Below, piece after piece: positions 5,271 to 33,434 of a stretch of 64,000 nt of DNA. The stretch spans positions 2,528,001 to 2,592,000 of the forward strand of contig CAXXDV010000001.1 of the NCBI GenBank assembly GCA_963674745.2, written 5' to 3'. The position numbers were made by a program, and so were the translations under genes. The notes beneath the pieces are model-generated. The model was not told where the DNA came from, searched no databases, and saw only the letters and a list, made by a program, of their open reading frames with translations. Positions within the stretch are counted from its first letter, which is position 1, and every line of letters starts with the position of its first letter. The DNA comes from Desulfosudaceae bacterium (lineage in GTDB: Bacteria; Desulfobacterota; Desulfobacteria; Desulfobacterales; Desulfosudaceae).

Positions 5271-8200
5271 GTGAACAAGATGAGTCCATCCGGCAATAAA
5301 CATCAGCCTGAACCATGTGATATCGCAATCATAGGGATGGGATGCCTGTTTCCCAGGGCGGCTGATTTGAGGGCTTATTGGGAAAATATCCTCAATAAAA
5401 TTAACGCAATAGTCGAGGTCCCGGAGGACCGTTGGGATTGGCGGCAATACTACAGTGCGGATCGGCACGAAAAAGATAAAGTTTATTCAAAGTGGGGGGC
5501 TTTTATCGATGACCTTCCTTTTGACCCTTTAAACCACGGCATACCGCCGAATTCCCTCAACTCAATAGAGCCGCTTCAATTGCTCTCACTGGAAGTGGTT
5601 AAAAGTGCCCTGGAAGATGCCGGCTATAAACACCGGGAATTTCCCCGGGACAGAACTTCCGTTATTTTTGGTATCAGCGGCTCTGGAGAACATGGTCAAA
5701 AATACTGTTTTCGCTCATCATTGCCGATGTTTTTCGGGAGTGCTGCCGGGGACATCGCATCCTTTCATAAGGAAAATCTGCCGCAATGGACGGAGGATTC
5801 TTTTCCGGGTATTCTGACCAACGTCACTGCCGGAAGAATCGCCAACCGGTTTGATCTTGGCGGCGTTAACTGTACGATTGATGCCGCATGCGCCTCGTCC
5901 CTGTCCGCACTATACTTGAGCGTCAGGGAACTCGAAGCAGGGACAAGTGATATCGTTATTGCCGGAGGCGCGGATTGCACGCAAAATCCGTTTGCTTATC
6001 TGTGTTTTTCAAGAACGCAGGCCCTTTCGCCGAGAGGCATATCCGCGCCTTTTGATGACAACGCCGATGGAATCGTTTTGGGCGAGGGGCTGGCGGCAAT
6101 CATTCTAAAACGTTTATCCGATGCCGAGCGGGATGGCGATAAAATTTATGCCGTCATCAAAGGCGTCGGCGCCTCGAGTGACGGCCGGGGCAAGAGCCTG
6201 ACGGCGCCGCGTCGCGAAGGGCAGATCCAGGCCTTGAAGCGGGCCTATGAACAGGCCGGCATATCGCCTAAAACGGTCGGTCTTATAGATGCGCACGCAA
6301 CCGGAACCGCTGTCGGTGACCGGGTTGAAATTGAATCAATGAGCGAAGTGTTTTTGGGAGAAGGTGCGGCAGCCCAAACCTGTGCGATCGGGTCTGTAAA
6401 ATCAATGATCGGCCACACGAAATCAACAGCCGGGCTGGCTGGTTTGATCAAGGTCGCCCTGTCGCTTCATCATAAGACGTTGCCGGCAACACTGAATGTG
6501 ACGATGCCGAATAAAGGTTTGACAATACCCGGCAGCCCCTTTTACGTGAACACGGAAACAAAACCATGGCTCAACCATACGGCAGACTATCCTCGTAGAG
6601 CCGGTGTGAGCGCGTTCGGATTCGGCGGTACAAATTATCATATTGTGCTGGAAGAATACACCCGTGACAATTCGCAAAAATCGAAACAAAAAGCGTTTTC
6701 GCAATGGCCTTGTGAGCTGTTTATATGGAAAAACGCCTCTTCCCAAAGACTGCTTGAGGTCTTGGTTCCACTGGAAGGTGCCCTGGCGCAGGGCGCAACG
6801 CCCTCGCTCAAAGACCTGGCCTATACCGTTAATAAAGCCGGAGAAGCGTCCGGATCCGGGAATGACGGCCAAAGCATAAACCTCGCCGTTGTGGCCTGCT
6901 CGGTAAATGACTTAAAGGACAAACTGAATACCGTTATCAAAGCATTACAGGATTCACGGCTGGAGATTGTTGATACCAAGGGGATTTACATGTCTGAAAC
7001 GTCTGCTCTCGGTGACGGGAAGCTGGCGTTCCTTTTTCCCGGGCAGGGATCCCAATATCTGAATATGTTCTGGGATCTGGTGGTTCAGTTCCCGGACATG
7101 CAGGCTTGGTTTGAACGGGCTGAAAGGGTTGTTGCCAATAAACTGGACAGGCCGTTAAGCAGTTATGTTTTTCCCACGAAAGCGCTGAGCAAGGAGGAAC
7201 GGGGTGTTTGTGAAAAAGACCTCGCCCGGCCGCAAATCGTCCAGCCGGCTTTGGGGACAGCCAATGTTGCCATGTATCATCTATTGAAAAGCCTTGGCAT
7301 TACGCCTGATATGGCGGCCGGCCACAGTTATGGCGAATACGTTGCACTGGGTGCCGCGGGTGTTTTCAGCGCGGATGACTTAATCGGGGTAGCCGAAGCC
7401 AGGGGTCGTTTTATCACTGAAACGGCAGGCGCCGACCTCGGTACAATGGCCGCGGCCGGGGAAGACAAGACGGTTGTCGAAGATATTATTAAAGATATTG
7501 ACGGCGTGTGGATAGCGAACATCAATTCACCGAAACAGACGGTGATTTCCGGAAGGAGCACTGCTGTCGACGAGGCCATGGAGAGATTGAAAAGCAAGGG
7601 TGTCGCCACCCGGCGTTTTCCGATCGGGTCGGCCTTTCATTCCCCGGTTGTTGCTCCGGCCAATGAGCTGCTCAAGGACTATCTTTCCAGGGTGAAGATG
7701 AATAGGCCGGCCATTGCAGTTTATTCAAACACGACCGCACAGCGCTACCCGGAGGACACTGATGCCATACGCGCGCTTCTGGTCAATCATCTTGTGAGCA
7801 AAGTGGACTTCGTGAATGAAATCGAGACCATGTATAACGACGGGGCCCGTATTTTTATTGAGGTGGGACCGGGCCGGGTGCTGTCAGGCCTTGTTTCTAA
7901 AATATTAAAAGACCGACCGCATCTGGCGCTGATTTCCAATCAGGCCGGCAAGTCGGGTTTAAGCCAGCTTTTACATTTGCTGGGGCGATTAATTGTCAGC
8001 GGCATTAATGTGAACATGGAAAAAGTGTATGAAGGCCGGGCGTTGAAGATGATCGATCTTGATGCACTGTACAGGCAGAAAGATCAATTCGGGATGACGC
8101 CGACAACCTGGCTTGTGAACGGGGCAAGGTCAATCTCTTTTAAAGAGGCAATGGCAATCAGTCCCAAAAAGGTCGTTAAGCCCATGGATTTAAAACCGGA

Positions 8201-10844
8201 AAGCGCAGCCATCAGGCAGGATGGGGCTGTCAATGACGCATCCGGTTTCGCCGCCCCGGACTTTAAGCCCGCAGATGTTTTGCCCTCCAACAGCAAAGCA
8301 TATGTAATGATACAGCACCAGAAATTGATGCAACGATTGCTTGATATGCATCAGAGCGTAATGATGCGCTATATGAACGGATTGACTCCCGGCAGTAAAG
8401 TGCCGATATCGGATAGCGCCATCACCGTCGGAGGCCATGCGCTAAATGCAAATGATGTGATCACGCCAGCGCCGGACCGTGTGCGCAGCGGGACTTCTCG
8501 GGTCGCTGAAGATGCCTCTGGCGGTTCTTTGATAGAACCCGTTTCAGGCGGCCCAGCCGGTGCCCCTGGAGAGACGGAGACAAAAGCCGTCCTTCTGCAA
8601 ATCGTCAGTGAGCGAACCGGTTACCCCGAGGATATGCTTGATCTCGATCTGAACCTTGAGGCTGACCTGGGCATTGATTCCATCAAGCGGGTCGAGATAT
8701 TGAACAGCCTGACACAGGTCCTGTTCCCGGAGGGGCATGATGAATCTTTTGAAGAGATCGAAGAGATCACCCAGTCTAAAACGCTGCGTGAAATAATTAC
8801 GCACATTGAAAACTTTATAAGCGCGGCCGGGAATCCCGCCTTGAACAAACCCGTTTCAGGCGGCCCAGCCGGTGCCCCTGGAGAGACGGAGACAAAAGCC
8901 GTCCTTCTGCAAATCGTGAGTGAGCGAACCGGTTACCCCGAGGATATGCTTGATCTCGATCTGAACCTTGAGGCTGACCTGGGCATTGATTCCATCAAGC
9001 GGGTCGAGATATTGAACAGCCTGACACAGGCCCTGTTCCCGGAGGGGCATGATGAATCATTCGAAGAGATCGAAGAGATCACCCAGTCTAAAACGCTGCG
9101 TGAAATAATTACGCACATTGAAAACGTGCTAAACGCGACCGGAAGCATCGGCTCAGGCGATGCGGTAAAACAGCCGCAGGAAATAACCCGCGGCAGTGCC
9201 CCTGAAGACACTGAAAACCGGTCGCTTCCCCGATTCACGTTAACGGCGGTTGAGGCGCCGATTGAGGAAAGCGCGATTGATCTGTCCCGGGACCGGGTGA
9301 TTATTATCACGGATGATGAGCGGGGCGTTGCCCGGTCACTTCAAGATAAATTGACGGCAAAGGGATATAAAGCCGTGACGTTGCGGTGGGGAAAAGAACA
9401 GGGGCATACCAAAGAGCCGGTTTATTTTCTGAATAATAATTTTGCCGAAGAAATAGAAACCGTTGTTAAAACAGTCCAAAAACAGCACGGCAACGTCGGC
9501 GGCCTTATTCACCTTTTTCCCCTTAAGGAATGCCCGTCTTTTCCGGGCATTGATCTGTCGGGCTGGACGGCACGTATCGATTACGAGATAAAATCGCTTT
9601 TCAGCCTTTTAAAATGCCTGGCCCCGGACTTGAGTGATGCGGCTGACAATGGCGGTGCCTGTGTTATGTCGGCCGTCCGTATGGGCGGTACCTTTGCCAG
9701 TGGATTGAGCACCAATAATACGGAATTTTTTCCGGGGCATGGCGGGATCAGTGGTTTGCTGAAAACCGCAGCCATCGAGTTGCCCGGGGTCCGGGTCAAG
9801 TCGGTTGATCTGGACAATAAAGCATCCGTATCGGAAATAGCAGAAAACCTATTCAAAGAAATCGGTGTGGCTGACAACTTTATAGAAATAGGCTATTCCG
9901 GAAAGAAAAGAATGAGACTGGGCCTTCTGGGTTCTTCTCTGGAATCAAGACGGGAGAACGGCCTTCAGATTGATTCGTCATGGGTGATTCTGGTTACCGG
10001 CGGCGCGCGTGGCATAACCGCTCAGATCGTTCTGGAACTGGCCCGAAAGTATCAGCCCAAACTTATTCTGGCCGGCCGCTCTTTGCCACCGCCGGTTGAA
10101 GAACCCGCCCAAACCGCGGGCGTTGAGCAACCCGAGGCGTTAAAAAAGACGATCATTGATAATATGCGGCAGCAGGGCAAGGACTTCTCCCTTGTTGATG
10201 TCGAAAAGGCATACAGGCGGTTGCGCAAAGAACGGGAGATGCGTTCAAACATCTCAGCCATGCGAAGCGCCGGGGCCGAGGTCGAGTACTGTCAGGTCGA
10301 TGTGCGCCACGAAAAAGAATTCGGCGACCTCATTGAAGGGGTATATGAAAAACACGGAAAGATTGATGCGGTCATTCATGGGGCAGGCGTGATCGAAGAT
10401 AAATTGATCAAGGATAAAACACTGGTTTCTTTTGACAGGGTATTGGGCACAAAGACGGAAAGTGCATTCATCCTCAGCAAGAAATTAAGACCTGAATCAC
10501 TGAAGTTGCTTGTTCTGTTTTCATCCGTTGCCGGACGATTCGGAAATCAGGGACAGTGTGATTATGCCGCGGCCAATGAAGTCATTAATAAACTGGCCGT
10601 GTATCTTAACAAGAAGTGGCCCGGAAGGGTCGTTTCAATCAACTGGGGACCGTGGGATAAATCAGGCATGGTCTCTGACGGGCTCAGGGAAGAGTTCGCC
10701 AGAAGAGGCGTCAGGCTGATACCGCCTGCCGCAGGGTCACATTTTATGAATATCGAAATCAAAAAGGGTGAAAAGGGCGAGGTGGAACTGGTTGTCGGCG
10801 ATGGGCCGTGGGGAGCGGTTGAAGATACGTCGCAGGTCCAGTAG
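5271..10844 (+). CDS. Type I iterative PKS, PfaA/HglE-like: KS-AT-ACP-ACP-KR
   Basis: KS DAACASS / DAHATGT / GHTKSTAG; AT FPGQGSQ, GHSYGE, SAFHS; two ACPs with DLGIDSIKRVEI; KR VTGGARGIT, HGAGVIED, YAAAN, WGPW. Confidence 0.95.
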   Translation: MNKMSPSGNKHQPEPCDIAIIGMGCLFPRAADLRAYWENILNKINAIVEVPEDRWDWRQYYSADRHEKDKVYSKWGAFIDDLPFDPLNHGIPPNSLNSIEPLQLLSLEVVKSALEDAGYKHREFPRDRTSVIFGISGSGEHGQKYCFRSSLPMFFGSAAGDIASFHKENLPQWTEDSFPGILTNVTAGRIANRFDLGGVNCTIDAACASSLSALYLSVRELEAGTSDIVIAGGADCTQNPFAYLCFSRTQALSPRGISAPFDDNADGIVLGEGLAAIILKRLSDAERDGDKIYAVIKGVGASSDGRGKSLTAPRREGQIQALKRAYEQAGISPKTVGLIDAHATGTAVGDRVEIESMSEVFLGEGAAAQTCAIGSVKSMIGHTKSTAGLAGLIKVALSLHHKTLPATLNVTMPNKGLTIPGSPFYVNTETKPWLNHTADYPRRAGVSAFGFGGTNYHIVLEEYTRDNSQKSKQKAFSQWPCELFIWKNASSQRLLEVLVPLEGALAQGATPSLKDLAYTVNKAGEASGSGNDGQSINLAVVACSVNDLKDKLNTVIKALQDSRLEIVDTKGIYMSETSALGDGKLAFLFPGQGSQYLNMFWDLVVQFPDMQAWFERAERVVANKLDRPLSSYVFPTKALSKEERGVCEKDLARPQIVQPALGTANVAMYHLLKSLGITPDMAAGHSYGEYVALGAAGVFSADDLIGVAEARGRFITETAGADLGTMAAAGEDKTVVEDIIKDIDGVWIANINSPKQTVISGRSTAVDEAMERLKSKGVATRRFPIGSAFHSPVVAPANELLKDYLSRVKMNRPAIAVYSNTTAQRYPEDTDAIRALLVNHLVSKVDFVNEIETMYNDGARIFIEVGPGRVLSGLVSKILKDRPHLALISNQAGKSGLSQLLHLLGRLIVSGINVNMEKVYEGRALKMIDLDALYRQKDQFGMTPTTWLVNGARSISFKEAMAISPKKVVKPMDLKPESAAIRQDGAVNDASGFAAPDFKPADVLPSNSKAYVMIQHQKLMQRLLDMHQSVMMRYMNGLTPGSKVPISDSAITVGGHALNANDVITPAPDRVRSGTSRVAEDASGGSLIEPVSGGPAGAPGETETKAVLLQIVSERTGYPEDMLDLDLNLEADLGIDSIKRVEILNSLTQVLFPEGHDESFEEIEEITQSKTLREIITHIENFISAAGNPALNKPVSGGPAGAPGETETKAVLLQIVSERTGYPEDMLDLDLNLEADLGIDSIKRVEILNSLTQALFPEGHDESFEEIEEITQSKTLREIITHIENVLNATGSIGSGDAVKQPQEITRGSAPEDTENRSLPRFTLTAVEAPIEESAIDLSRDRVIIITDDERGVARSLQDKLTAKGYKAVTLRWGKEQGHTKEPVYFLNNNFAEEIETVVKTVQKQHGNVGGLIHLFPLKECPSFPGIDLSGWTARIDYEIKSLFSLLKCLAPDLSDAADNGGACVMSAVRMGGTFASGLSTNNTEFFPGHGGISGLLKTAAIELPGVRVKSVDLDNKASVSEIAENLFKEIGVADNFIEIGYSGKKRMRLGLLGSSLESRRENGLQIDSSWVILVTGGARGITAQIVLELARKYQPKLILAGRSLPPPVEEPAQTAGVEQPEALKKTIIDNMRQQGKDFSLVDVEKAYRRLRKEREMRSNISAMRSAGAEVEYCQVDVRHEKEFGDLIEGVYEKHGKIDAVIHGAGVIEDKLIKDKTLVSFDRVLGTKTESAFILSKKLRPESLKLLVLFSSVAGRFGNQGQCDYAAANEVINKLAVYLNKKWPGRVVSINWGPWDKSGMVSDGLREEFARRGVRLIPPAAGSHFMNIEIKKGEKGEVELVVGDGPWGAVEDTSQVQ
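8536..9125 (+). repeat. Near-identical direct repeat encoding the tandem ACP domains (8536-8813 and 8848-9125)
   Basis: Two 278-nt copies at a 312-nt offset; about four substitutions visible by eye. Confidence 0.92.
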
Positions 10845-10881
10845 TTGCTTTATGTCATCATAAGCGTGATAGCAGAGTCTA

Positions 10882-13800
10882 ATGACGGATAACAATAAAA
10901 ACAATACCTCAGCATCAGAAGATATCGCCATTATCGGCATGTCCTGTATTTTTCCGGGTGCTTCAGGGATCGATGAATACTGGCAGAATATTTTATCCTG
11001 TGTCGACTGTATCAGCGACGCCCCTCCTGAAGCGTGGGACCAGGGCGTGCTTTATGACCCCGAAAGTGATGCCAAAGACAGGGTTTATTGTAAACGGGGC
11101 GGGTTCCTTCATGAGAAGGAAAGAATGTTTAATCCGTTGAAGTACGGTATCATGCCCAGCGGTGTAGAAGGCGCGGAGCCGGACCAGTTTCTGGGATTGC
11201 GAGTTGCCCACGAGGCCCTGTCCGACGCAGGGTATCTTGACAACCCTGAAATAAAAGACCGCACCGCGGTCATTCTGGGCAGAGGTTCGTACGTCAATGC
11301 CGGACAGATGAATCTGGTCCAACATGGATGGATTGTTGAACAGACCCTTCAGATATTAAAACGCCTTCATCCCGAGTACGCGGATGACCAGCTGAAAGAA
11401 ATCAAAAATGAGCTCGTATCCGGCCTGCCGCCTTTAATCGCGGAAATCGTACCCGGTCAGGTCCCGAATATTGCGGCCGGTCGTATCGCCAACCGTCTGG
11501 ATTTAAAAGGGCCGAGCTTTACGGTGGATGCCGCGTGCGCGTCTTCACTGATCGCTCTTGATATGGGGCTCAAATCATTGCGCAGCCGTGAATGCGACCT
11601 GGCCATTGTGGGTGGTATGCAGGGCGGCAATACGGTGCTTTCTTATTTAATGTTCTGTCTGATAAAAGCCTTGTCCAGGAGTTCCCGGATCCGGCCGTTT
11701 GATCAAAACGCGGATGGCACGATATTGGGGGAAGGCGTTGGTATGGTGGTTTTGAAACGGTTGGCGGAGGCCGGTAAGGATGGTGACCGCATTTATTCGA
11801 TTGTCAAGGGGATGGGGACAGCCAGCGACGGTCGCGGGATGGGCATATTGGCGCCACGGCTGGAAGGTTCGGCCCTGGCCGTAGAGCGCGCCTATCAGAC
11901 AACCGGCCTTTCCCCTGCCACAATCGGCCTGATGGAAGCCCATGGAACAGCCACAATCGCGGGAGACACAACAGAATTCAGTGCGTTGCATTCGGTCTTC
12001 GGAAACAGGAAGGGGAAATTGCCCCGGTGCGCCATCGGATCGGTCAAGTCGATGATCGGCCATTCGCTGGGCGCGGCCGGTATCGCCGGATTGATCAAGG
12101 CCTCCCTTGCCCTTTATCATAAAGTGCTGCCGCCCACCTTGAACTGTACCGAGCCGAACAGCAAGCTGGGGCTTGACCGGTCCGGTTTTTATATTAATAC
12201 CGAAACCAGGCCCTGGATCCACGGATCTGCGGAAACCCCGAGGCGTGCCGGCGTCAACTGCATGGGGTTCGGCGGCATCAATGCCCACGCGGTGCTTGAG
12301 GAGTATACGGAAAAGAGTGCGGCTCAAACGTCCAGTTGCCATAAACGCTGGGACAGTGAAGTTTTTATTTTTCAGGGAGATTCGCGCCAGACGCTGATCA
12401 GCCGGGCCCGTCAGGTGCTTGATTTCATTTCCGCCTCGCCGGACGTGGATCCAAAAGACCTTGCCTATACATTGAACAGTACGCTTTCGAAAAAGACCTG
12501 CCGTCTTGCCATTGTGGCTTCCGCGATTACGGATTTGGAAAAAAAGCTGGCCAACGCGCTTGAACGTCTGGCCGATCCCGAATGTAAACGCATCATGTCC
12601 CGGGGGGGTGTTTATTTTTTTGCCGAACCATTGAAAAATAATGGTAAACTGGCTTTTCTGTTTCCGGGTGAGGGGTCGCAATACGTTAACATGCTTTCCG
12701 ATCTGTGTATCCATTTTCCTGAAGTAAGAAAACGCTTTGATCGCATTGACGGGATATTCAGCGGGCATTCAAGAGATTTTGTCCCCAGTGATTTTATCTT
12801 TCCGCGTCCGGTATTCAGCGAGACGGATAAAAAGGCCGCCGAAGAAAATTTATTCAAGATGGATGTGGCCGTTGAGGCGGTTTTAACGGCCAACGATGCA
12901 TTGCTTGATATCCTGAACAATCTGGATATCCGTCCGGACGCGGTTCTCGGCCACAGTACGGGGGAATACTCTTCCATGCGGGCCGCCGGAATCCTGAACA
13001 TTACCGACAGTGCGGACAGCGATCAGTACCTCCTTGCCCTGAACAAAAGCTATGAAGAGATAGCCGCAAAGGGCGAAATCCCCCGTGCCGTCCTGGTTGC
13101 CGTGGCCGCGGATTCAGAAAAAGTGGCGTCAATAATTGAGGCAACGGGTGGCCGGTTGTTTATTGCCATGGACAACTGTACCCTTCAGACCGTTATCGCG
13201 GGCGCCCCGGAATATATGGAAGTTGCCGTCAAGGCGTTGAAACGGCAAAGTTTGATGTATCAGACCTTATCTTTTGACAGACCTTATCATACGCCGTTGT
13301 TCAAGGAGTTTGCCGAAGGTCTTTCCCGTTTTTACGACCAGTGGCCTGTCGTCCCCCCCTCGACGCCGATTTATTCCTGTACCACCGGCGACCTGTTCCC
13401 CGATGATGTCACGGCTATTCGCAGGATTGCCGTTGACCACTGGCTCATGCCGGTACGGTTCAGGCAGACAATTGAAAAAATGCACGCCGATAATGTGCGG
13501 CTTTTTGTTGAAGTGGGGCCAAGGGGCAACCTGACGGCATTTGTAAAAGACATTCTCGGCCGCCGGGATCATTTATCGATTGCCCTCAACACGACGCGGC
13601 GTTCCGGGATTACCCAGCTTAATCATGTAGTGGGAATGCTGGTCGCCCACGGTGTGGACGCACGGCTGGATTATCTTTACAGTCGCAGGGATCCCCGAAA
13701 ACTGACATTCGACGGCACCGAAAACGGCCGCACCAAAAGCAATGAATCTAAAGGCATCATGACGTTGTCGCTCCAGTTCCCGCGGATGAAGTTGCGGAAT

Positions 13801-16188: not shown

Positions 16189-16189
16189 T

Positions 16190-21775: not shown

Positions 21776-22986
21776 AAAGAAAACGGCCCTTAACCGGTAT
21801 TCGTGTTCTGGATTTGTCCCACAGCTGGGCGGCCCCGCATTGTGGCAGAATCCTGGCGGACTTCGGCGCCGAGGTGATCAAGGTCGAGTATATCAGAAGG
21901 CTCTGCCTTCTTCGGGGGGCAAAAAAAGACCCGCAGATATATAACAATCACCCCGGCTGGCTGCAGGTGAACAGAAACAAATATGCCATCACGTTAGACT
22001 TGAAAGAAACGGGCGATCGTGAGATATTTATAAATCTCATCAGGATTTCCGATGTGCTGATCACGAATTCAAGGACCGGTGTCATGGAAAAGCTTGGCTT
22101 CGGGTATGCCGATATTATCAAGATTAAAAAAGATTTAATCGTCCTGTCCATGTCTTCTTTCGGAAACACGGGGCCATATGCTTATTATTCGGGATACGGT
22201 GCTGTCTTTGAAGCCGTTGGCGGCATTAACAGCCTTACCGCTTATGATAAGGACAGCCGGCCCTGCCGGATCAAGGAAGTTGATGTCACAAACGGCTCGG
22301 CCGGCGCAAGCGCCGTAATGACGGCACTTATTTATCGTCAAAAAACAGGGCGGGGACAATATATCGACCTGTCACAGCTTGAAGCCGCCACCCATGCAAC
22401 TATAGGTGAACATTTACTGGCATTTGAAATGGACGCGGAACAGACCCTGCCGAACGGTAACCGGCATTGGAAGTATGCGCCCCGGGGATGCTACCGGTGT
22501 AAAGGGGATGATAAATGGGTCGTTATTACTGTCCGGTCAGAGGGTCAATGGGAACGGTTTTGTGACGTTCTGGGACATCCCGAGTGGAAAACGGATGGAC
22601 GGTTTATGTCCGTTTCGCAAAGGATTGTCAACCATGATGAATTGGACAAATTGATTGATACCTGGACCGGTGTGCGTGAAAACATGGAAGTCATGACCCT
22701 GCTTCAGGAAAATAATATTTGTGCCGGTGCGGTACTTGATGTGGAAGACCTCGGCGGAAATCGTCACCTGATTGATAGAGATTACTTTGTTTGTGAAGAA
22801 GAATCCTCTGATATGCGTTTTTTGGGGATGCCTTTTGTTTTGTCCCGGGGCGCCGGGAGGGTCGCATGGCGCGGGCCTGCACTGGGCAGTCATAACGAAC
22901 ATGTCCTGTGTGATTTACTTGGGATGTCAAAAAAAGATGTCAGGCCTTTGACGGCAAATGAGGTCGGCACAGCCTTTGATAAATAG
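21772..22986 (+). CDS. Class III (CaiB/BaiF) CoA-transferase subunit, probably catalytic
   Basis: LTGIRVLDLS, LADFGAEVIKVE, NRNKYAITLDLK, EVDVTNG (Asp retained) and GPALGSHN; ATGA overlap with the previous gene. Confidence 0.88.
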   Translation: MKRKRPLTGIRVLDLSHSWAAPHCGRILADFGAEVIKVEYIRRLCLLRGAKKDPQIYNNHPGWLQVNRNKYAITLDLKETGDREIFINLIRISDVLITNSRTGVMEKLGFGYADIIKIKKDLIVLSMSSFGNTGPYAYYSGYGAVFEAVGGINSLTAYDKDSRPCRIKEVDVTNGSAGASAVMTALIYRQKTGRGQYIDLSQLEAATHATIGEHLLAFEMDAEQTLPNGNRHWKYAPRGCYRCKGDDKWVVITVRSEGQWERFCDVLGHPEWKTDGRFMSVSQRIVNHDELDKLIDTWTGVRENMEVMTLLQENNICAGAVLDVEDLGGNRHLIDRDYFVCEEESSDMRFLGMPFVLSRGAGRVAWRGPALGSHNEHVLCDLLGMSKKDVRPLTANEVGTAFDK

Positions 22987-27452: not shown

Positions 27453-27515
27453 GACGTCGAATAGGCATCCGCTGAAAAAGGGCGAAAGACAAAAATGATT
27501 TCTTGAGAGAATAAA

Positions 27516-28931
27516 ATGGAAGATTTTGTCCCTCAGCTTGAAGGACTGGGCCTTAGCCCGCAGTCACAATTGTTGGTGGCCTATACGCATTTTATGAACG
27601 GGGATGGGGCTCAGGCGATCCAGCGATGTAAAAACGCCCTGAAGATGAACCCTAAATACACCGACGCCCACCTGCTGCTGGCCAAGGTATACGCCGGTCT
27701 TGGAAACAGCGACGAGGCGATGGCGGCGTGCAGGGATGCCCTGGCCGTCGATCCGGATCTGGCCAAAGGTTTCCTGATGCTGGGATCAATTTATCAGGAC
27801 CAGGGTTCGTATCCTGAAGGGATCGCCGCCTGCCGGAAATCGCTGAAAATCGATCCGGATGATCCGACAGGTCATTTTCTGCTTGGCGAGATGTATGCCC
27901 TGCAGGAACAGTTTGAGGATGCCGTGCGTGCCTTCCAAAAGGCCCTGAAATTAAATCCGCAGCTTGAGCTGGCGTATTATAAACTTGCCGCCGCATACCA
28001 GGCGCAGGGGATGACTGCTGAAGCCCTGCAAGAGGTGAGAAAAGCGTTAGAGCTGAATCCCATTGTGGCCCGCACGAGAATCCTTTTAGGTGACATTTAT
28101 TTTGCCCAAAAAGAGTACGAAAAGGCCCTTTCCGAATATCAGGAGGCCCTTACAAACAATCCGCAACTGGCCGAAGCACATCAAAAAGCAGGTGAAGCCT
28201 ATTTCAAGCTGGAGAAGACCCACCAGGCTATTTTGGAGTATCGGATTTCATTGCTCATTAACGCAAAATCGGTTGAGGCCCATGTCGGGCTTGCCCATAT
28301 TTATTTTACGACCGGCCGGTATGGCGTGGCGGTTTCCGAATATAAGGCGGCCTTGCATTTGAATCCACATTTATTGTCGGCTCGTGCCGGGCTTGCCGAT
28401 GCCCATGTCATGAATGAACAGTATGCGGAGGCGGTCGATCAATATCGCGCCGCCCTTGAACTGGCAGAGGTTAAATGTGAATCCGGCGATCAATGCCTGG
28501 AAAATGAGCAATATAATGAGGCGATTGCTTTATACCGGTCAACACTGGGCCTGGATGAGGCGCTGCATCCCGTTCATGACAAAATCAAGACAAGCAGTTC
28601 ATGGCATCCTCTGGTAAGCAGGAGGAAGCATGAACGGATCCCGATGAGAGTCCCTGCGGAGATCCGGACGAAGGATGGTGTTCCTTACAGTGTCGAGAGC
28701 GTTGATGTTTCTAAGCAGGGTATTTTAATTGAAAGCAGCAAGCCCATACAGGTCGGTTCTGAAGTAGAGGTTTTGCTTTTGCCTGAAGGCGAAAAAGATG
28801 CGATCCCCCTTGTCGGCCGGGTTGTCAGGGTCGCAAACCCGGATCGTCCTGACAAGCAGTTCGGGATTGAGCTGGCACCCGATGCCGATGATGCGTGGGG
28901 TGCTATTTTAGGTGAGGACTGTATCATGTAA
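27516..28931 (+). CDS. TPR-repeat protein with a C-terminal PilZ domain
   Basis: About nine TPR units (A...LG.....G....A.....KAL..NP); C-terminal SRRKHERIP and DVSKQG. Confidence 0.88.
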   Translation: MEDFVPQLEGLGLSPQSQLLVAYTHFMNGDGAQAIQRCKNALKMNPKYTDAHLLLAKVYAGLGNSDEAMAACRDALAVDPDLAKGFLMLGSIYQDQGSYPEGIAACRKSLKIDPDDPTGHFLLGEMYALQEQFEDAVRAFQKALKLNPQLELAYYKLAAAYQAQGMTAEALQEVRKALELNPIVARTRILLGDIYFAQKEYEKALSEYQEALTNNPQLAEAHQKAGEAYFKLEKTHQAILEYRISLLINAKSVEAHVGLAHIYFTTGRYGVAVSEYKAALHLNPHLLSARAGLADAHVMNEQYAEAVDQYRAALELAEVKCESGDQCLENEQYNEAIALYRSTLGLDEALHPVHDKIKTSSSWHPLVSRRKHERIPMRVPAEIRTKDGVPYSVESVDVSKQGILIESSKPIQVGSEVEVLLLPEGEKDAIPLVGRVVRVANPDRPDKQFGIELAPDADDAWGAILGEDCIM

Positions 28932-29018
28932 GGCCGCAAAGAAAAAACCAGTGCCGCCCAGGCGGCGGGCTGCATTGCGCTGCATTCGTCAGAATCTGCG
29001 CGTCTTGGTGTCGAACTT

Positions 29019-31364
29019 TTGGCTTTGCCGTCGAAAATACAATTTTCTGAAGTAAAGACGGGTTACGGATTGCAAAAAATACTTCCAAAATATTGTGCAG
29101 ATGTGGAAATTGTGCCGAGATTGGGCAAAGAGGGCGTATTCCGTTATCTTGTCGTTGCCCCGGCTTCTGATGAAGTATATGAGATTGGCGAAAAAGAATA
29201 CTTTATCTTCAAGCAGTTCAATGGAGAAACAGCGCTTGAAACGATACCGGAACGGTTTTTTAACCACTTTAATATCCCATTGAATAAGGATTATCTGGAA
29301 TCTTTTGTTATTCATTTAACATCATTGGGATTGCTGGAATCAGATGCGTCCACAATTGAAGAACATGCCGCTCAAGATGATGACATTAACGGCATTAAGA
29401 TATTTGATCCTGACCGGTTGTTGACCTTTTTGTCGCAGATTTGCTGGTGGTGCTTTACACCTTTTTTTCTGATGTTCACCGGTATTACTTTATTTGTGGC
29501 AATGGGCGTTTTATTTAAATACGGCGGTGACTTGATTTTTGAGGTTCAAATTCTCTGGGAACCGGGTTTTTTCTTCTTTTTCCCTTTATTGGGTATTTTT
29601 GTTATCCAGGTGGCATGTGAGATGGTAAAAGGTATGACCTGTAAATATTACGGGGGGCATGTCCATGAATTCGGCGTATGGTTTGTTTTTAAAATAATTC
29701 CCTTTTTCTATTGCGACCTGACCGATGCCCTGTGGATGGAAAATCAATCCAACCGCAAAAAGATTCTGTCCGCCGGGATTGTTTTCCACTTGTTGCTCTG
29801 GTCCATGGGTATCATCGGCTGGTATGACACACACACCGGATCAAAAATAAACTTGTTTTTTATAATCTTTATCTGTGTTTCTACACTTTATTTGTTTTAT
29901 TCCGTTAATCCGTTTTTTCAACGGGACGGTTATACGCTTTTGAGTGTTTGGCTTAAAACGCCGGATTTGAGAAGCCGGGCGATCAATTTCTGGAAGCACT
30001 GGTTTTTTAAAAAACCGCTGCCTGAACCACTGACAAAAAAACAAGTGCGCAGGTTTAAAGTTTATGGGTTGTCATTGTTTGGATTTCATTTTGTCTTCTG
30101 GTCGGCGCTGTTGGGGTTCATTGGATACCTTCTTGTAGACCTTTTAAATGGAATCGGCGCGATCTTATTTTCAATAATCCTGTTTTTCAGGTTTAACAAT
30201 TATTTGAAGAGGATACCCATGGAATTATTCAATTTTAAAAGGGTTTTATTAAATGAGAACGGCATGGCCAGCCTGCCGGTCAGACGGTTTATTAAATTTG
30301 GCATACCAATACTCATTATTCTGGTTATGCTGATACCCTACCCGTTTTCTGTCGGCGGCGATTTCCGTATCGTGCCTGAAAATCAGCTGGGCATTCGTGC
30401 GCAGGTGGCCGGGGAAATCGGGGAAGTCTTTGTCACGGAAGGGGAATTTGTAGAAGAGGGGCAACCTGTTGCCGTTATGGTCGGACGGGAGCAACGGAAA
30501 ACAGTCGATGAAGTCCAGGCCTCTCTGGACGAGGTGCATGCCAGGCTGGAACTTCTCCGGCAAGGCGCCAAAACCGAAGAGATCCAGCGGGCTGAACAGG
30601 AAGTGGCGACCGCGGCAAAAAGTTTAGAGTACAGCAGCCTTCAAGCCGATAGAAGTGAAGGTATGTTTAAAAACAAGGCGATTTCAGAGCAGGATTATGA
30701 GAACGCTTTAAAGCAGCGTGATCTGGATAAAGAAAAGCTTGAACTGGCCAAAAAGAACCTCGAGCTTGTTAAAAGCGGTGCCCGTGATGAAGCGATCAAG
30801 GCCCTTGAAGCAGAAGAAAGACGCCTGCAAGTCCTTTTTGAGAACGCAAATGAAGATTTGAAGCAAACAACAATGCTCAGTCCTGCTGACGGCAGAATCA
30901 TCACCCCTTTTGTCTCCCAGACCGTGGGGCAATACCTGCAGGTTGGTGACCTGCTCGCTGTGGTTGAACAACCGGGTAATATTATAGCCGAAATACAGTT
31001 GTCCGAAGAAGATGTTGGAGAAGTTGATGTGGGCGCAGAGACCAGGTTAAAGACCTGGGCTTTTCCTCATAATGTGTATTCAGGAAAAGTGCTGGCCATT
31101 GCACCGGTCGCGTTTGAAAAAAGTAAGGGCCGAATCGATCGTGCATTATCTGAAAGAGAATGGCGTGTTGAACAAAAAGAACTGATTCGAAAAAAGGGAA
31201 AGGTTGTAAGGATTATTTCAAGTATGGAAGATCCCGATGGCCTCTTAAAAACAGATATGACCGGATACGGCAAAATCAGATGTGGCTGGCGGCCGGTGGG
31301 GATTGCTTTTACGCGATGGCTGAACCGGTTTATCTTTGTAGAGGTATGGTCATGGCTGCCATAA
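29019..31364 (+). CDS. Fusion of a PqqD/RRE-like domain, an M50 (site-2 protease)-like membrane domain with a degenerate active site, and a HlyD-family membrane fusion domain
   Basis: N-terminal YEIGEKEYFIFKQFNG...LTSLGLLE; CEMVKGMTCKYYGGHVHEFGV, FFYCDLTDA, AGI and NPFFQRDGY; HlyD lipoyl half-motifs GEIGEVFVTEGEFVEEGQ and SPADGRI with a coiled coil. Confidence 0.8.
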   Translation: MALPSKIQFSEVKTGYGLQKILPKYCADVEIVPRLGKEGVFRYLVVAPASDEVYEIGEKEYFIFKQFNGETALETIPERFFNHFNIPLNKDYLESFVIHLTSLGLLESDASTIEEHAAQDDDINGIKIFDPDRLLTFLSQICWWCFTPFFLMFTGITLFVAMGVLFKYGGDLIFEVQILWEPGFFFFFPLLGIFVIQVACEMVKGMTCKYYGGHVHEFGVWFVFKIIPFFYCDLTDALWMENQSNRKKILSAGIVFHLLLWSMGIIGWYDTHTGSKINLFFIIFICVSTLYLFYSVNPFFQRDGYTLLSVWLKTPDLRSRAINFWKHWFFKKPLPEPLTKKQVRRFKVYGLSLFGFHFVFWSALLGFIGYLLVDLLNGIGAILFSIILFFRFNNYLKRIPMELFNFKRVLLNENGMASLPVRRFIKFGIPILIILVMLIPYPFSVGGDFRIVPENQLGIRAQVAGEIGEVFVTEGEFVEEGQPVAVMVGREQRKTVDEVQASLDEVHARLELLRQGAKTEEIQRAEQEVATAAKSLEYSSLQADRSEGMFKNKAISEQDYENALKQRDLDKEKLELAKKNLELVKSGARDEAIKALEAEERRLQVLFENANEDLKQTTMLSPADGRIITPFVSQTVGQYLQVGDLLAVVEQPGNIIAEIQLSEEDVGEVDVGAETRLKTWAFPHNVYSGKVLAIAPVAFEKSKGRIDRALSEREWRVEQKELIRKKGKVVRIISSMEDPDGLLKTDMTGYGKIRCGWRPVGIAFTRWLNRFIFVEVWSWLP

Positions 31365-31373
31365 GGAGGTCTG

Positions 31374-32780
31374 ATGAGAATCGCAAAAACAAATAAAAGA
31401 TATCGCATCATCAGTTTGGTCCAGGCAATTTTAGTGCTCATTATGTTGCCGTCTTTTGCCTTTTCCGGACCGTCTCCGCAACTTGTTACGCTGGACGATG
31501 CCTTTGCTCGTGCCATAACCATTGATGAGCGGATCAAAATAGCCGAAAGAGAAATTACGAAAAGCCATATTCTTTCTGACAAAGCGGCAACTTATTTCTG
31601 GCCGAGCATGTCTGCATATGGCGGGTATTTCGAGGCGAATGAAGAGGTCAGAATCGGATCTTATACCGCAACCTCGGCCACCGGCCTTGGACCTTTTGAT
31701 GTCGCTCCGGTTGACAGAAATGTGATCACGCCCAAGGGCGAATGGCGGGGAAAATTCGAGTTTTTGCAGCCGCTTTACAGAGGGGTGTACTTCCCATTAA
31801 AAGACCAGGCAGAGAGAATTATCGAAAGAAGCACGGAAACGTTCTATCAGACTGTGCAGGATACGCTGCTCGAGGTCGAGCGGGTTTACTTCGAAATTTT
31901 AAAAATCAAGGAACTGGTGCTAAACGCCGAAGAGATTTGCAAACTGGCTCAAGAGGAGCTGGACATTGCAAAAGTTAAATTCGAGGCCGGCCAGGCGACG
32001 GAAGATATCGTTCTCAAGGCCGAACTTTATGTTACAGAAGCGGAACGAAAAAAAATCGAATACCGCAATGACCTGAGATCGGCCAAAGACGGCCTGGGAA
32101 ATCTGATCGGAATAGAGAACGTGTGCACGGATTTTGATGTCGTTAAACCGCATATGCGAACGGTTCCCGGAATGGATTACGAGTTTTTGTTAAATATCGC
32201 CTTTGAAAACAGATACGATCATGAAATCGCATTATTGAACGTGAATGTGGCCGAGTCTGATGTCGATATTGTAAAGGCAAGGTTTCATCCGACACTTCAG
32301 GCGAGCTGGGATTATTACATATCTGACCATGAAACCCTCAGCCGGGACAATGAATCCTGGATCGCCGCCATAACCATGGAGATACCGATTTTAGAGGGTA
32401 CGTTGCGCTTCCGTGATCTGAAGGAGAAAAAAGAGGCGCTGAGTCAGGCGCGACTTAATCTGGACGCAAGAAAAAAGAAAATCAGGATACAGGTTCAGGA
32501 TGCTATTCTTCAGGTCGATAGTTTTGAAGGCATTCTTAAGAACCTGGAAAAACAGGTGGAGCTGGCTCAAAAAAACTACGACATTATATCAACCCAGTTT
32601 GAGTATGGATCGGCCACCAGCCTGTATTTGAATGAGGCGCTGACGGATCTGGACTCGGCTAAAACCGCATTAATTCATGCCACCTACAGCCAGCAGCAGG
32701 TCCTGATTGATCTTGAAAGGGTCCTGGGGATATATGCACATGATTATATTAACAGCATAATTGAAGAGAAAGAGGAATAG
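31374..32780 (+). CDS. TolC-family outer membrane efflux protein
   Basis: AGGAGG RBS; signal peptide; TLDDAFARA, QPLYRG, YFEIL, KFEAGQAT, IPILEG and FEYGSAT. Confidence 0.88.
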   Translation: MRIAKTNKRYRIISLVQAILVLIMLPSFAFSGPSPQLVTLDDAFARAITIDERIKIAEREITKSHILSDKAATYFWPSMSAYGGYFEANEEVRIGSYTATSATGLGPFDVAPVDRNVITPKGEWRGKFEFLQPLYRGVYFPLKDQAERIIERSTETFYQTVQDTLLEVERVYFEILKIKELVLNAEEICKLAQEELDIAKVKFEAGQATEDIVLKAELYVTEAERKKIEYRNDLRSAKDGLGNLIGIENVCTDFDVVKPHMRTVPGMDYEFLLNIAFENRYDHEIALLNVNVAESDVDIVKARFHPTLQASWDYYISDHETLSRDNESWIAAITMEIPILEGTLRFRDLKEKKEALSQARLNLDARKKKIRIQVQDAILQVDSFEGILKNLEKQVELAQKNYDIISTQFEYGSATSLYLNEALTDLDSAKTALIHATYSQQQVLIDLERVLGIYAHDYINSIIEEKEE

Positions 32781-32825
32781 GCGTTTTGCCCAATGCTTTA
32801 TTGCTTTGTGAGCGGGGAGTTTTAA

Positions 32826-33434
32826 ATGACTGACGCGCGTTCAGGGAAGGAACCTCAAGACCGGGTTGTTATCGTATCGGGGTTGCCCCGGTCGGGAACA
32901 TCAATGATGATGCAGATGCTTGAGGCCGGCGGGGCAGAGATTGTGACAGATGGTGTCCGTAAGGCGGACAATGATAACCCCAAAGGATACTATGAGTTCG
33001 AAAAAGTTAAGCAGATGCACGGTGGCACGGAATGGCTTGATGACTGTCCCGGCAAGGCCATAAAAATGGTTTCCCCCCTTTTGTCCCGGTTACCGGATGA
33101 CAGGTCGTACAAGGTTATTTTTATGCGAAGAGACCTTAAGGAGGTCCTTGCCTCTCAAAATGTCATGCTGAAACGGTTGGGACGACAGGGCGCCAATATT
33201 TCCGACGAGGAAATGATTGAGAAATTTGATGCTCATTTGCATGAAGTGGTGGGTTGGCTTGCTGATAAACATAATTTTGATGTTTTATACATTGATTTTA
33301 AAGATGTTGTCCGGCATCCGCATGAAACTGCGGTCGCTGTTAACCGGTTTTTAGAAAAAGCCCTGGATACCACCGCCATGGGTAATGTTGTTGAGCAAAA
33401 GCTTTACCGCCAGAAAAGCGGGGAAGGCGAATGA
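32826..33434 (+). CDS. Sulfotransferase-family protein
   Basis: PAPS-binding loop IVSGLPRSGTSMMMQML; NPKGYYE; 3'-phosphate-binding-like IFMRRDLKEVLASQ. Confidence 0.85.
   Translation: MTDARSGKEPQDRVVIVSGLPRSGTSMMMQMLEAGGAEIVTDGVRKADNDNPKGYYEFEKVKQMHGGTEWLDDCPGKAIKMVSPLLSRLPDDRSYKVIFMRRDLKEVLASQNVMLKRLGRQGANISDEEMIEKFDAHLHEVVGWLADKHNFDVLYIDFKDVVRHPHETAVAVNRFLEKALDTTAMGNVVEQKLYRQKSGEGE

Follow-up and report, generated by a model that had tools for sequence, protein, structure and literature searches.

The window, that is, the whole 64,000 nt stretch analysed here, contains 14 consecutive plus-strand open reading frames between positions 5271 and 33434 (g01 to g14; Table 1), and not 13 as counted in a preliminary description of this DNA. 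The short or overlapping junctions described there are borne out by the ORF coordinates: all the genes are co-directional and the intergenic distances range from -4 to 127 nt (from g01 to g14: 37, 1, 9, 12, 127, 80, -4, an overlap, 92, 99, 63, 87, 9, and 45 nt). The cluster indeed ends convergent to galE (33480–34469, minus strand; TIGR01179, 452.7 bits, cut-off 262.3), with g14 stopping 45 nt before it, and every domain previously named was recovered with Pfam and NCBIfam. For g01, an ATG at 5280 is a likelier start than the GTG at 5271, with a Shine-Dalgarno sequence, AGGTGA, at 5269–5274. The sigma70-like promoter formerly described as strong is present as a site, but it is only a consensus match and the surrounding 1-kb stretch is rich in such sites (seven, vs. 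2.5 ± 1.8 in shuffled sequences). No riboswitch was found at the gathering threshold in the whole window, at E ≤ 1 in positions 4500–5400, or in 15 loci comprising 14 relatives' loci and the leader from genome G174. A terminator scan was uninformative (30 sites, vs. 23.2 ± 4.6 in shuffles).

Table 1. Promoter candidate and genes of the cluster, with coordinates in the window.
Feature	Description	Coordinates	Strand	Evidence
Promoter	sigma70-like candidate, TTGACA-17-TACATT, TG-extended	5086..5114	+	consensus match, 10/12 positions
g01	PKS1, PfaA-like: KS(Cys-His-His)-AT(GHSYG, AFHS)-ACP-ACP-KR	5271..10844 (start probably ATG 5280)	+	Pfam, NCBIfam, motifs
g02	PKS2, 'PfaBC-like': KS(Cys-His-His)-AT(GHSTG, PYHT)-ACP-DH(PS-DH)-PPTase(ACPS)	10882..16188	+	Pfam, NCBIfam, motifs
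g03	discrete carrier protein, ACP-like, invariant Ser52	16190..16504	+	weak AsbD match (NCBIfam); alignment
g04	cytoplasmic NPP-type phosphodiesterase, AP superfamily PF01663	16514..18118	+	Pfam, alignment, fold match
g05	alpha/beta-hydrolase (GHSLG) fused to PilZ	18131..19342	+	Pfam, motifs
g06	secreted PHB-depolymerase/feruloyl-esterase-family esterase (GYSNG), signal-peptide-like N-terminus	19470..20504	+	Pfam, NCBIfam, motif
g07	family III CoA-transferase, subunit 1	20585..21775	+	Pfam, NCBIfam
g08	family III CoA-transferase, subunit 2; 4-nt overlap with g07	21772..22986	+	Pfam, NCBIfam
g09	beta-propeller (residues ~15-495) + class I SAM methyltransferase (~570-720)	23079..25418	+	Pfam, fold search
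g10	radical SAM enzyme, probably B12-class, CPIDCEFC at 183, DUF4070	25518..27452	+	Pfam, NCBIfam, motif
g11	TPR protein + C-terminal PilZ (RRKHER ... DVSKQG)	27516..28931	+	Pfam, motifs
g12	polytopic membrane domain (7 TM-like segments, M50-protease-like) + HlyD-type periplasmic adaptor	29019..31364	+	Pfam, NCBIfam, motif
g13	TolC-family outer-membrane channel (OEP x2), signal-peptide-like N-terminus	31374..32780	+	Pfam, NCBIfam
g14	small (202-aa) PAPS-type sulfotransferase, P-loop-like PRSGTS	32826..33434	+	Pfam, PDB search, motif

PKS1 scores above the cut-off of the PfaA model TIGR02813 (1238 vs. 1010.1 bits) and its tandem ACPs are a near-identical repeat. The dehydratase of PKS2 is a PS-DH (PF14765), with no second KS-like domain in the protein by Pfam, and the motif of its PPTase, LSLSH, is of the hShxH kind in a by-eye comparison. 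PDB sequence searches with both subunits gave generic modular PKS, trans-AT PKS and MAS matches, of no help in classification. From their domains and active-site residues, the two subunits would act as iterative type I synthases assembling an acyl chain from malonyl units. Pfam found no NMO/ER domain in any of the 14 products, and the chain would therefore be unsaturated and/or hydroxylated. The genome contains several further PfaA-like loci, and its single above-cut-off match to the PfaD model TIGR02814 adjoins a PfaA-like gene outside the cluster (C3:591299–592609), from where an enoyl reductase could conceivably act in trans. In the relatives L006 and L039, the PKS1 proteins (2787 and 2728 aa, respectively) carry a fused N-terminal PfaD-type ER, and a C-terminal DH occurs in both as well as in G174 and in a paralogous cluster of the same genome; because the window PKS1 lacks both domains, the chain chemistry is not transferable from these relatives.

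As already proposed, domain searches confirmed that the cluster matches neither PUFA synthases nor the enediyne synthase PksE. With the PUFA synthase pfaABCDE it shares a PKS1 above the PfaA cut-off, tandem ACPs and the iterative logic, but it has no KS-CLF, an AT in place of the CLF, a PKS-type instead of a FabA-type DH and no PfaD ER; domain searches found neither PfaC (KS-CLF, FabA-type DH) nor PfaD among the 14 products, and a canonical PUFA synthase was rejected. So was PksE, a single KS-AT-ACP-KR-DH-PPTase polypeptide, since the cluster divides these domains between two proteins that both have a KS-AT-ACP set. In Pfam, the 14 products show no enediyne cassette domains (hot-dog thioesterase, conserved unknowns). 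Enediyne PKSs build polyenes and end in DH and PPTase domains, the same domains that end PKS2. This similarity, the lack of an ER in the cluster and the position of g14 at its far end would suit a non-sulfated polyene envelope lipid or pigment, e.g., an antioxidant, in which KS, KR and DH make a conjugated polyene acid and the sulfotransferase acts elsewhere. We consider this unlikely: sulfotransferases accompany the core genes in four independent arrangements (the window and G588, the paralogue, G174, and G435), and the fused ER in close core relatives indicates that the family is not intrinsically polyene-forming.

By domain content, the architecture matches instead an uncharacterised kind of secondary lipid synthase, "pfaA + pfaBC-PPTase". 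In the sections dealing with them, pfaA(-DA) + pfaBC-PPTase synthases are catalogued as Types M–T (Shulse & Allen 2011; PMC3098273), and a pfaA + pfaBC-PPTase arrangement is noted in Renibacterium salmoninarum (PMC13291983). As far as those sections describe them, the features in common are a PfaA-like KS-AT-tandem ACP-KR protein, a second KS-AT-DH subunit with a PPTase (KS-AT-...-DH with fused PPTase in window PKS2 and in L006) and its hShxH-kind motif, a patchy, HGT-like distribution and even, in L006 and L039, the fused ER; the window PKS1 differs from the Type M-like pfaDA synthase of these sections in lacking the N-terminal ER and the C-terminal DH. The same sections make no mention of a module of ACP, NPP-type phosphodiesterase, hydrolase and propeller, of tailoring by sulfation or glycosylation, or of a c-di-GMP input. 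We found no paper reporting this gene set, but its two-PKS architecture had been catalogued as an uncharacterised 'secondary lipid synthase' type (PMC3098273; PMC13291983).

In the part of their article concerning Desulfobacterium autotrophicum, Shulse and Allen proposed a 'Type S' synthase as the main membrane fatty acid source (PMC3098273). That organism is of the same group as ours and PKS1 exceeds the PfaA cut-off, so the cluster might be a housekeeping fatty acid synthase supplying most membrane fatty acids. We find this very improbable, as the marker gene for the cluster, encoding the alkaline-phosphatase-superfamily (AP) enzyme, was searched for without a match in G129, a genome of the same genus that is 99% complete, and was detected in only two of 201 sampled genomes of the order and nine of 401 of the phylum (G000 within both counts). 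Furthermore, an ER is missing, export, sulfation and c-di-GMP input are atypical of housekeeping synthases, and the genome has several other PfaA-like loci.

The AP enzyme, g04, belongs to the NPP branch of the superfamily by its modelled fold, Thr nucleophile and bimetal ligands. It scores 131.8 bits against PF01663, and its AF2 model (pLDDT 88.8) has Xac NPP as top Foldseek match (E 4e-17, TMt 0.65), followed by ENPP6, ENPP7 and then ENPP1/3/5. The putative nucleophile, Thr49, aligns with the NPP nucleophile region and is among the invariant residues (D10, T49, D212, D215, H219, D274, H275, and H432; for D10, T49, D274, H275, and H432, across 29 sequences). A predicted complex of g04 with the carrier protein g03 scored 0.28, against a mark of 0.32 and without controls, and counts neither way. 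For proteins of the cluster, the ESM Atlas yielded nothing more specific than 'alkaline phosphatase family', 'hypothetical' and 'exo-alpha-sialidase family'. By PDB sequence search, g05 is closest to esterases, C-C hydrolases and haloperoxidases. From the gene order, the chain would be handed to, or processed on, the discrete ACP and be released by this hydrolase. The esterase g06 falls just under the NF050058 cut-off (144.3 vs. 150 bits) and would work outside the cytoplasm.

The two CoA-transferase subunits, 27–28% identical, may supply an unusual acyl-CoA starter, perhaps loaded by the non-canonical second AT. Gene g09 (779 aa), earlier called methyltransferase-like, does have a C-terminal methyltransferase, but this is fused to a beta-propeller of around 500 aa that had been missed, whose Foldseek matches are generic Kelch/GH74 propellers with no functional lead. 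Several NCBIfam families of B12 radical SAM enzymes match g10, all far under their cut-offs (TIGR04072 and TIGR04013 align from residues 34–72), and the Pfam B12-binding domain was not reported at E ≤ 1e-3. Both proteins might contribute methyl groups to the product.

The sulfotransferase g14 would sulfate a hydroxyl to form the head group; PAPS should be available, because the genome encodes an APS-kinase domain. At E ≤ 1, its PDB sequence search listed 25 entries; every one is either a sulfotransferase of the cytosolic type or a chance match, and none derives from a PKS. In CurM/OLS off-loading, ACP, sulfotransferase and thioesterase are fused at the PKS C-terminus, and the cluster resembles it in linking both a sulfotransferase and an alpha/beta-fold hydrolase to the end of a PKS pathway. 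The product could then be an olefin: the sulfotransferase would act on a carrier-bound beta-hydroxyl, the hydrolase would cleave the thioester, and decarboxylation would expel the sulfate, here a leaving group, to give a terminal alkene. A beta-hydroxyacyl end is plausible because a KR is present and an ER absent, and in the paralogue and in G174 the genes for these two enzymes are overlapping neighbours, with a g14-like gene (45–47% identity) abutting that for the hydrolase. Nevertheless, both enzymes are free-standing, with no ACP-ST-TE tridomain; a CurM-type module was rejected, as g05 and g14 are separate genes some 13.5 kb apart in the window, and adjacent yet separate in the paralogue. 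Neither search of the PDB, with g14 (E ≤ 1) or with g05, listed a PKS-derived sulfotransferase or thioesterase. Besides, glycosyltransferases replace the sulfotransferase at the tailoring position of related clusters, which fits a stable head group better, and trans-envelope exporters suit an amphiphile better than a hydrocarbon. On this evidence an olefin is quite unlikely, and we retain sulfation as the proposed head-group chemistry, with glycosylation probably taking its place in other lineages, as their tailoring genes suggest.

Comparative analyses were used to examine whether the downstream genes are conserved together with the PKS pair. This held: an uncultured Desulfobacterales MAG (G588) has all 14 genes in identical order, with 68–87% identity, and subsets drawn from the CoA-transferase pair, propeller-methyltransferase, radical SAM, esterase, TPR-PilZ, M50-HlyD, OEP and sulfotransferase genes accompany the PKS core in independent metagenome contigs and in G435. 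A core made of the PfaA-like PKS, the KS-AT-ACP-DH-PPTase PKS, the ACP, the NPP-type phosphodiesterase and the alpha/beta-hydrolase recurs, in invariant gene order throughout the cluster family, in Desulfobacterota, Chloroflexota, Planctomycetota and Actinomycetota, usually accompanied by a beta-propeller protein. In genome loci fetched with PKS2 alone, the AP enzyme and the hydrolase lie directly downstream in 10 of 10 and the ACP in 8 of 10 (E ≤ 1e-5), and both PKS genes are adjacent in the seven AP-positive genomes examined (one of them, G228, being the same contig as L006). Among metagenome loci fetched with the AP enzyme alone, the ACP is upstream in 19/19 with at least 350 nt upstream, the hydrolase downstream in 9/10 with at least 900 nt downstream, a g09-like protein in 6/6 with at least 4.6 kb downstream (three of these six with the CoA-transferase pair, and L067 with at least its first subunit) and the radical SAM gene in 2/4 with 10 kb downstream; one locus has the TPR-PilZ gene and two a PilZ on the hydrolase. 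The accessory genes (CoA-transferase pair, B12 radical SAM, secreted esterase, M50-HlyD, TolC-like channel, and sulfotransferase) appear in varying combinations, and in other lineages GT1 glycosyltransferases, SDRs or PF00884 sulfatases fill the tailoring position (in L033, the sulfatase is accompanied by an rSAM-SPASM gene). The paralogous cluster, on contig C3, has its own sulfotransferase and genes for an OMF+MFP+RND exporter. The cluster is an orphan solely in its lack of a known product: its family is widely distributed, and the genome itself holds a paralogue.

The occurrence of the core alone in distant relatives, and the start of the largest gaps (80–127 nt) after g05, could mean that the pathway comprises only g01–g05 and that g06–g14 are co-directional by chance. 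Against such a mosaic stand the synteny of the 14 genes in G588, the recurrence of g06–g11 homologues, differently ordered, in L051, L052, L055, L059, L063, and L067, and the presence of homologous or functionally equivalent counterparts to g06, g12, g13, and g14 in the distant genome G435, where M50-HlyD, PF13469 sulfotransferase, PHB-depolymerase-like esterase and OEP genes follow the core; recurrence of g12–g14 was checked in G588 and G435, since the metagenome loci end too early. We hold this explanation to be barely credible, and comparison of the sequences indicates that the 14-gene cluster is a real, co-conserved unit. In G129, G174 and G067, homologues of the flanking purQ and downstream carbamoyltransferase genes are on separate contigs or at a distance of around 590 kb, and an empty insertion site was not definable by flank synteny in these three genomes.

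The HlyD fusion named in the preliminary description does have an HlyD adaptor, to which we can add that its membrane part resembles M50-type intramembrane proteases without HExxH: g12 scores 93.4 bits against NF041824 (cut-off 300) and has distant homologues with PF02163. An active S2P (M50) protease was rejected, as the site reads HEFGV. The start of g12 may lie 28 codons further in, because a 753-aa form is on record. Together with the TolC-like g13, the fusion would allow the product to cross both membranes, although this model is incomplete because Pfam identified none of the transporters (ABC, RND, or MFS) that could energise export at the inner membrane in the 14-gene cluster.

Similar combinations of synthesis and export are found in other bacteria. 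The heterocyst glycolipid system of cyanobacteria (hglEDCB, HglT, DevBCA-HgdD) uses a PfaA-like synthase to make a hydroxylated long chain for an envelope layer. The analogy would extend to hydroxyl decoration (glycosylated in relatives of the cluster, sulfated here) and to export by an adaptor and a TolC-like channel; conversely, the cluster has no KS-CLF(-AT) subunit, thioester reductase or ABC transporter, it would use sulfate for sugar, and it has a PilZ input. The mycobacterial sulfolipid-1 pathway (Pks2, Stf0, MmpL8) relies on a trehalose scaffold, Pap acyltransferases and MmpL export. By analogy, both would yield a surface sulfolipid from acyl chains made by a PKS, with the help of a PAPS sulfotransferase and an exporter dedicated to the product, but the cores are unrelated (NF041183 Pks2 model, 463 bits vs. 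a cut-off of 2400).

Both PilZ domains previously described are present with the canonical RxxxR and D/NxSxxG motifs: RRLYER at 290 and NISSQG at 318 in g05 (PF07238, 37.1 bits), and RRKHER at 369 and DVSKQG at 397 in g11 (50.4 bits), making them candidate c-di-GMP receptors. Fusions of the hydrolase to PilZ appear confined to the close clade: among 17 hydrolase homologues listed, all except that of L005 have 270–346 aa and no PilZ. Binding is predicted from these motifs, and c-di-GMP, a biofilm signal, would gate the pathway post-translationally through the hydrolase PilZ and the TPR-PilZ protein.

Taken together, these analyses make it somewhat probable that the cluster is a c-di-GMP-gated, self-contained, horizontally mobile 'secondary lipid' pathway for an exported, sulfated and probably methylated lipid; that the product is a sulfated or methylated amphiphile is what we infer from the tailoring genes. 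This explanation leaves g04, the most conserved accessory enzyme, unaccounted for. Sediment and anaerobic bacteria commonly carry PfaA-like 'secondary lipid synthase' clusters and, to our knowledge, known products are nearly absent beyond the PUFA, heterocyst-glycolipid and phenolic-lipid systems. The sub-family to which this cluster belongs has a clear conserved core (two PKS, ACP, NPP-type phosphodiesterase, hydrolase, and propeller), and would combine it with interchangeable head-group chemistry (sulfate or sugar) and dedicated trans-envelope export. Cultivable organisms of sulfate-reducer type are among the nearest relatives, so the product is experimentally reachable; such a lipid could be an unrecognised sulfated biomarker of anoxic sediments.

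Ahead of the paralogous cluster lies a c-di-GMP-I riboswitch (RF01051; 48.9 bits, gathering score 35). We can speculate, as a rather doubtful possibility, that c-di-GMP governs the making and export of a lipid, and not a polysaccharide, adhesin or motility organelle; that two paralogous lipid clusters in one genome are wired to it by unrelated mechanisms, a GEMM-I riboswitch before one and PilZ domains on the chain-releasing hydrolase and a TPR partner in the other; and that the substrate of the invariably ACP-adjacent NPP-type g04 is either acyl-CoA or the phosphodiester that joins phosphopantetheine to the carrier protein. If so, g04 would perform release or recycling chemistry new to PKS/FAS systems, as we know of none with a phosphodiesterase-type step of this kind. 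Lipid as an output, backed by two independent wirings in one genome, would broaden the repertoire of this second messenger.

Pfam and NCBIfam searches of the ORFs at 5271-33434 revealed a run of 14 consecutive plus-strand genes, g01 to g14, with gaps of -4 to 127 nt, whose products include the domain content given in a preliminary description of this DNA (the PKS pair, ACP, PPTase, PilZ, HlyD, TolC and sulfotransferase among others), confirming its observation of a cluster; the co-directional run stands, although the ORF listing raises its count from 13 genes to 14. The run ends, as had been described, convergent to galE (TIGR01179, 452.7 bits), 45 nt from the end of g14, whereas the strong sigma70-like promoter placed before it is retained here as a candidate site. 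The sequence AGGTGA at 5269-5274 suggests that g01 starts at the ATG at 5280. Neither flank is related to the cluster: purL/purQ-like genes precede it, and genes for a carbamoyltransferase, a SET-domain protein and a TRAP transporter follow it. The proposed boundaries are therefore reasonable.

Features of the cluster, its surroundings and related loci (positions without a prefix are those of the window)
Feature	Position	Call or basis
Candidate sigma70-like promoter, TTGACA-17-TACATT	5086-5114 (+)	consensus match only
g01 (PKS1)		KS-AT-ACP-ACP-KR; TIGR02813, 1238 bits, above the curated PfaA cut-off of 1010.1
Tandem ACPs within g01	8590-9270	near-identical ~100-aa repeat
g02 (PKS2)		KS-AT-ACP-DH(PS-DH)-PPTase
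g03 (ACP)		carrier protein, 104 aa
g04		AP-superfamily PF01663 enzyme
g05		alpha/beta-hydrolase + PilZ domain
g06		PHB-depolymerase-family esterase
g07, g08		two family III CoA-transferases
g09 (propeller protein)	23079-25418	779 aa, methyltransferase at C-terminus
g10		radical-SAM/DUF4070 enzyme
g11		TPR protein + PilZ domain
g12		membrane domain-HlyD fusion
g13		TolC-family channel
g14		sulfotransferase, 202 aa
Carbamoyltransferase gene	35464-37338	
SET-domain protein, bacterial	37363-37980	PF00856, 72 bits
DUF4301 protein and its neighbor	42516-45429 (-)	DUF4301, 607 bits
B12-binding radical SAM genes	46619-48103, 51098-52594, 59180-60616	
rSAM-SPASM gene	48093-49133	
Further rSAM gene	54618-55853	
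Tandem SDR pairs	L051:7063-8824, L055:7076-9392, L063:3108-4858	
Distant propeller homologs	L006:21370-23376, L033:7761-9767, L042:748-2808, L043:6808-8928	signal peptide or lipobox
Paralogous cluster	C3:328000-357500	loci L018, L019, L002
c-di-GMP-I riboswitch RF01051	L019:8230-8308 (-)	48.9 bits vs gathering score 35
Further PfaA-like locus	C3:591299-599337	PfaD-type ER directly upstream (TIGR02814, 617.5 bits)
Further PfaA-like locus	C3:1325870-1330195	two KS-like regions, one 2393-aa frame

Cys-His-His is retained in both KS domains, and the AT domains carry GHSYG and AFHS, the latter a malonyl-specific AT motif, in PKS1 and GHSTG and PYHT in PKS2. The near identity of the tandem ACPs suggests a recent duplication or gene conversion. 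RxxxR and D/NxSxxG are present in both PilZ domains, GxSxG in g05 and g06, and CPIDCEFC in g10; the N-termini of g06 and g13 are signal-peptide-like. Inspection of the g12 protein sequence found seven TM-like segments and no HExxH. Fusions of this M50-like/HlyD type are rare: a protein search gave 23 at E<=1e-5. One Planctomycetota homolog of g12 and one homolog of the AP enzyme (g04) come from contigs that are both 50,816 nt long.

Scanning a genome collection with PKS2 retrieved ten loci, and tblastn with all 14 proteins placed the AP enzyme and the hydrolase (g05) directly downstream in every one, together with the ACP in eight (L013 and L014 had no ACP match at E<=1e-5). The closest locus, from the uncultured Desulfobacterales MAG G588, contains all 14 genes in unchanged order with 68-87% identity, g01-g10 on locus L005 and g09-g14 on its continuation L032. 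Scanning metagenomes with the AP enzyme as the sole query yielded 22 loci (52-81% identity), whose coverage stops short of where g12-g14 would fall. The ACP lies upstream of the AP enzyme in all 19 with at least 350 nt upstream, and the hydrolase downstream in 9 of the 10 that extend 900 nt or more past it; the tenth, L069, has only an AP fragment (residues 46-117), followed by 3.3 kb matching none of the 14 genes. All six loci reaching 4.6 kb or more downstream encode a g09-like protein and three of them the CoA-transferase pair, to which L067 adds at least the first subunit, while the radical-SAM enzyme occurs in two of four loci with 10 kb downstream, the PilZ-bearing hydrolase in two (L050 and L051), and the esterase and the TPR-PilZ protein in one each. 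In the genome G435, which is distant but belongs to the same phylum, the core (PKS1, PKS2, ACP, AP enzyme and hydrolase) is followed by genes for a propeller protein, an M50-HlyD fusion 23-28% identical to g12, a sulfotransferase (PF13469), an esterase resembling PHB depolymerases and an OEP channel. Thus, the synteny in G588, the metagenome loci and G435 show that downstream genes are co-conserved with the PKS pair, the opposite of what the preliminary description had held would speak against its reading. Metagenome locus L061 differs in having a PKS1-like gene, with KR at its end, and not a PKS2-like one immediately before the ACP. Additionally, a tandem SDR pair follows the hydrolase in the close-clade loci L051, L055 and L063; the window cluster has none.

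The g04 protein retains the NPP-type Thr nucleophile region, and residues D10, T49, D212, D215, H219, D274, H275 and H432 are invariant in an alignment of 29 sequences. The best structural match of its AF2 model (pLDDT 88.8) is a bacterial NPP, followed by ENPP6, ENPP7, ENPP1/3/5 and phosphonoacetate hydrolase. The Thr region, the invariant residues and the model match together point to an enzyme of the phosphodiesterase type, whose gene always lies between those of the discrete ACP and the hydrolase; sequence inspection found no signal peptide or TM-like segment in it. The N-terminal ~500 residues of g09 are modeled as a beta-propeller (pLDDT 79.7; generic Kelch/GH74 structural matches). Whereas propeller homologs in distant clusters bear a signal peptide or lipobox, those of the close clade, the window protein included, have neither, and therefore the implied cellular compartment differs. 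The methyltransferase is fused to the propeller in all close-clade members except L039.

A second copy of the system is present in the source genome (G000), on contig C3, in the order PKS1 (2285 aa, KS-AT-ACP-KR-DH), PKS2 (KS-AT-DH), ACP, AP enzyme (43% identity), hydrolase (34%, without PilZ), sulfotransferase (47% to g14, its gene overlapping that of the hydrolase), propeller-like protein (661 aa), free AT, OMF, MFP and RND pump. In G174, from the same family, this order is kept through AT; the next gene encodes a 575-aa protein whose match to a propeller is weak. The RF01051 riboswitch lies ~250 nt upstream of the start of the C3 PKS1, and Rfam searches gave no match in the window, in 14 relatives' loci or in the G174 leader. 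With the element found before the C3 paralog and not in the window, the two clusters appear, as judged from sequence, to be tied to c-di-GMP differently, by a riboswitch in C3 and by PilZ fusions in the window. Contig C3 contains two further PfaA-like loci, so that this 5.5-Mb genome has four or more loci for PfaA-like synthases.

Domain analysis bears out the earlier view that neither known pattern fits the window cluster: it lacks the KS-CLF, FabA-type DH and in-cluster ER of a PUFA synthase, and the division of its domains between two proteins, with two KS-AT pairs, sets it apart from an enediyne PksE. Likewise, a CurM/OLS ST-TE module was rejected because the enzymes are free-standing and PDB searches gave no sequence relationship. 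By analogy, the working logic seems most like that of the heterocyst-glycolipid system, with a PfaA-like synthase, a hydroxyl-linked head group and adaptor plus TolC export, although the CLF and reductase subunits of that system are missing. The PKS1 of relatives L006 and L039 is ER-KS-AT-KR-DH, and that of the window lacks both this ER and the C-terminal DH; a PfaD homolog is encoded elsewhere in G000. The arrangement in these relatives corresponds to the "fused pfaDA + pfaBC with PPTase" that PMC13291983 likens to an uncharacterised Renibacterium salmoninarum secondary lipid synthase; Renibacterium is placed under Type M in PMC3098273. The window cluster is best described as a reduced form of the pfaA + pfaBC-PPTase type of secondary lipid synthase, with predicted sulfation and c-di-GMP wiring. 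Full-text searches gave no description of this gene set, in keeping with the preliminary description, which named no characterised product for it. Nor did they turn up a PKS cluster containing PilZ domains or a pairing of an NPP-type enzyme with an ACP; this absence is provisional because subscription papers, MIBiG and the figures and supplements of PMC3098273 lay outside the scope of the searches.

Tailoring genes around the core vary. Sulfotransferases accompany it in the window and G588, the C3 paralog, G174 and G435, GT1 glycosyltransferases and SDRs in L006, L008, L010 and L014, and PF00884 sulfatases in L006, L010 and L033, the last also with an rSAM-SPASM gene; other tailoring genes in relatives encode methyltransferases and an AMP-binding enzyme. 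Because hydroxyl groups are the acceptors for both sulfotransferases and GT1 enzymes, the simplest reading is that the family product is a hydroxylated acyl chain receiving a polar head group. An APS-kinase domain is encoded in G000, which makes PAPS available. In the proposed pathway, the CoA-transferase pair g07/g08 would supply the starter, a methylation step may take place, the hydrolase g05 would release the chain, a hydroxyl of which would be sulfated, and the product would be exported across the envelope; the PilZ motifs suggest that the pathway could be gated by c-di-GMP. This proposal builds on the observed domains, catalytic residues, gene order, co-conservation, PilZ motifs and C3 riboswitch, and supports the earlier interpretation of a pathway for an exported, probably sulfated and/or methylated amphiphile, the chemistry of which is predicted. 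No inner-membrane energising pump is found among the 14 cluster products, a gap in the export model.

Of 201 genomes sampled from the order, 2 gave a match to the AP marker (g04) at E<=1e-40, as did 9 of 401 from the phylum at E<=1e-80; both counts include G000. The search did not find the marker in G129, a 99% complete genome of the same genus. A protein search with it, in which 8000 proteins were scored, gave at least 2164 at E<=1e-30; identity is 52-84% for the best 120 of these 2164. Sources among the matches listed include Nitrospirae, Deltaproteobacteria, Desulfobulbaceae, Planctomycetota, Thermodesulfobacteriota and Gammaproteobacteria, including Halioglobus japonicus, and the only functional names among them are "alkaline phosphatase family" and "AlkP superfamily phosphohydrolase/phosphomutase". 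This distribution is sporadic and fits horizontal spread.

Beyond the downstream boundary, the SET-domain gene comes just after that for the carbamoyltransferase, and the DUF4301 protein adjoins one whose N-terminal domain is of the LarA lactate-racemase type. At 45622-60616 the radical SAM genes are densely grouped with those for two glycosyltransferases, one methyltransferase and two large TPR proteins, perhaps as a modification cluster in its own right.
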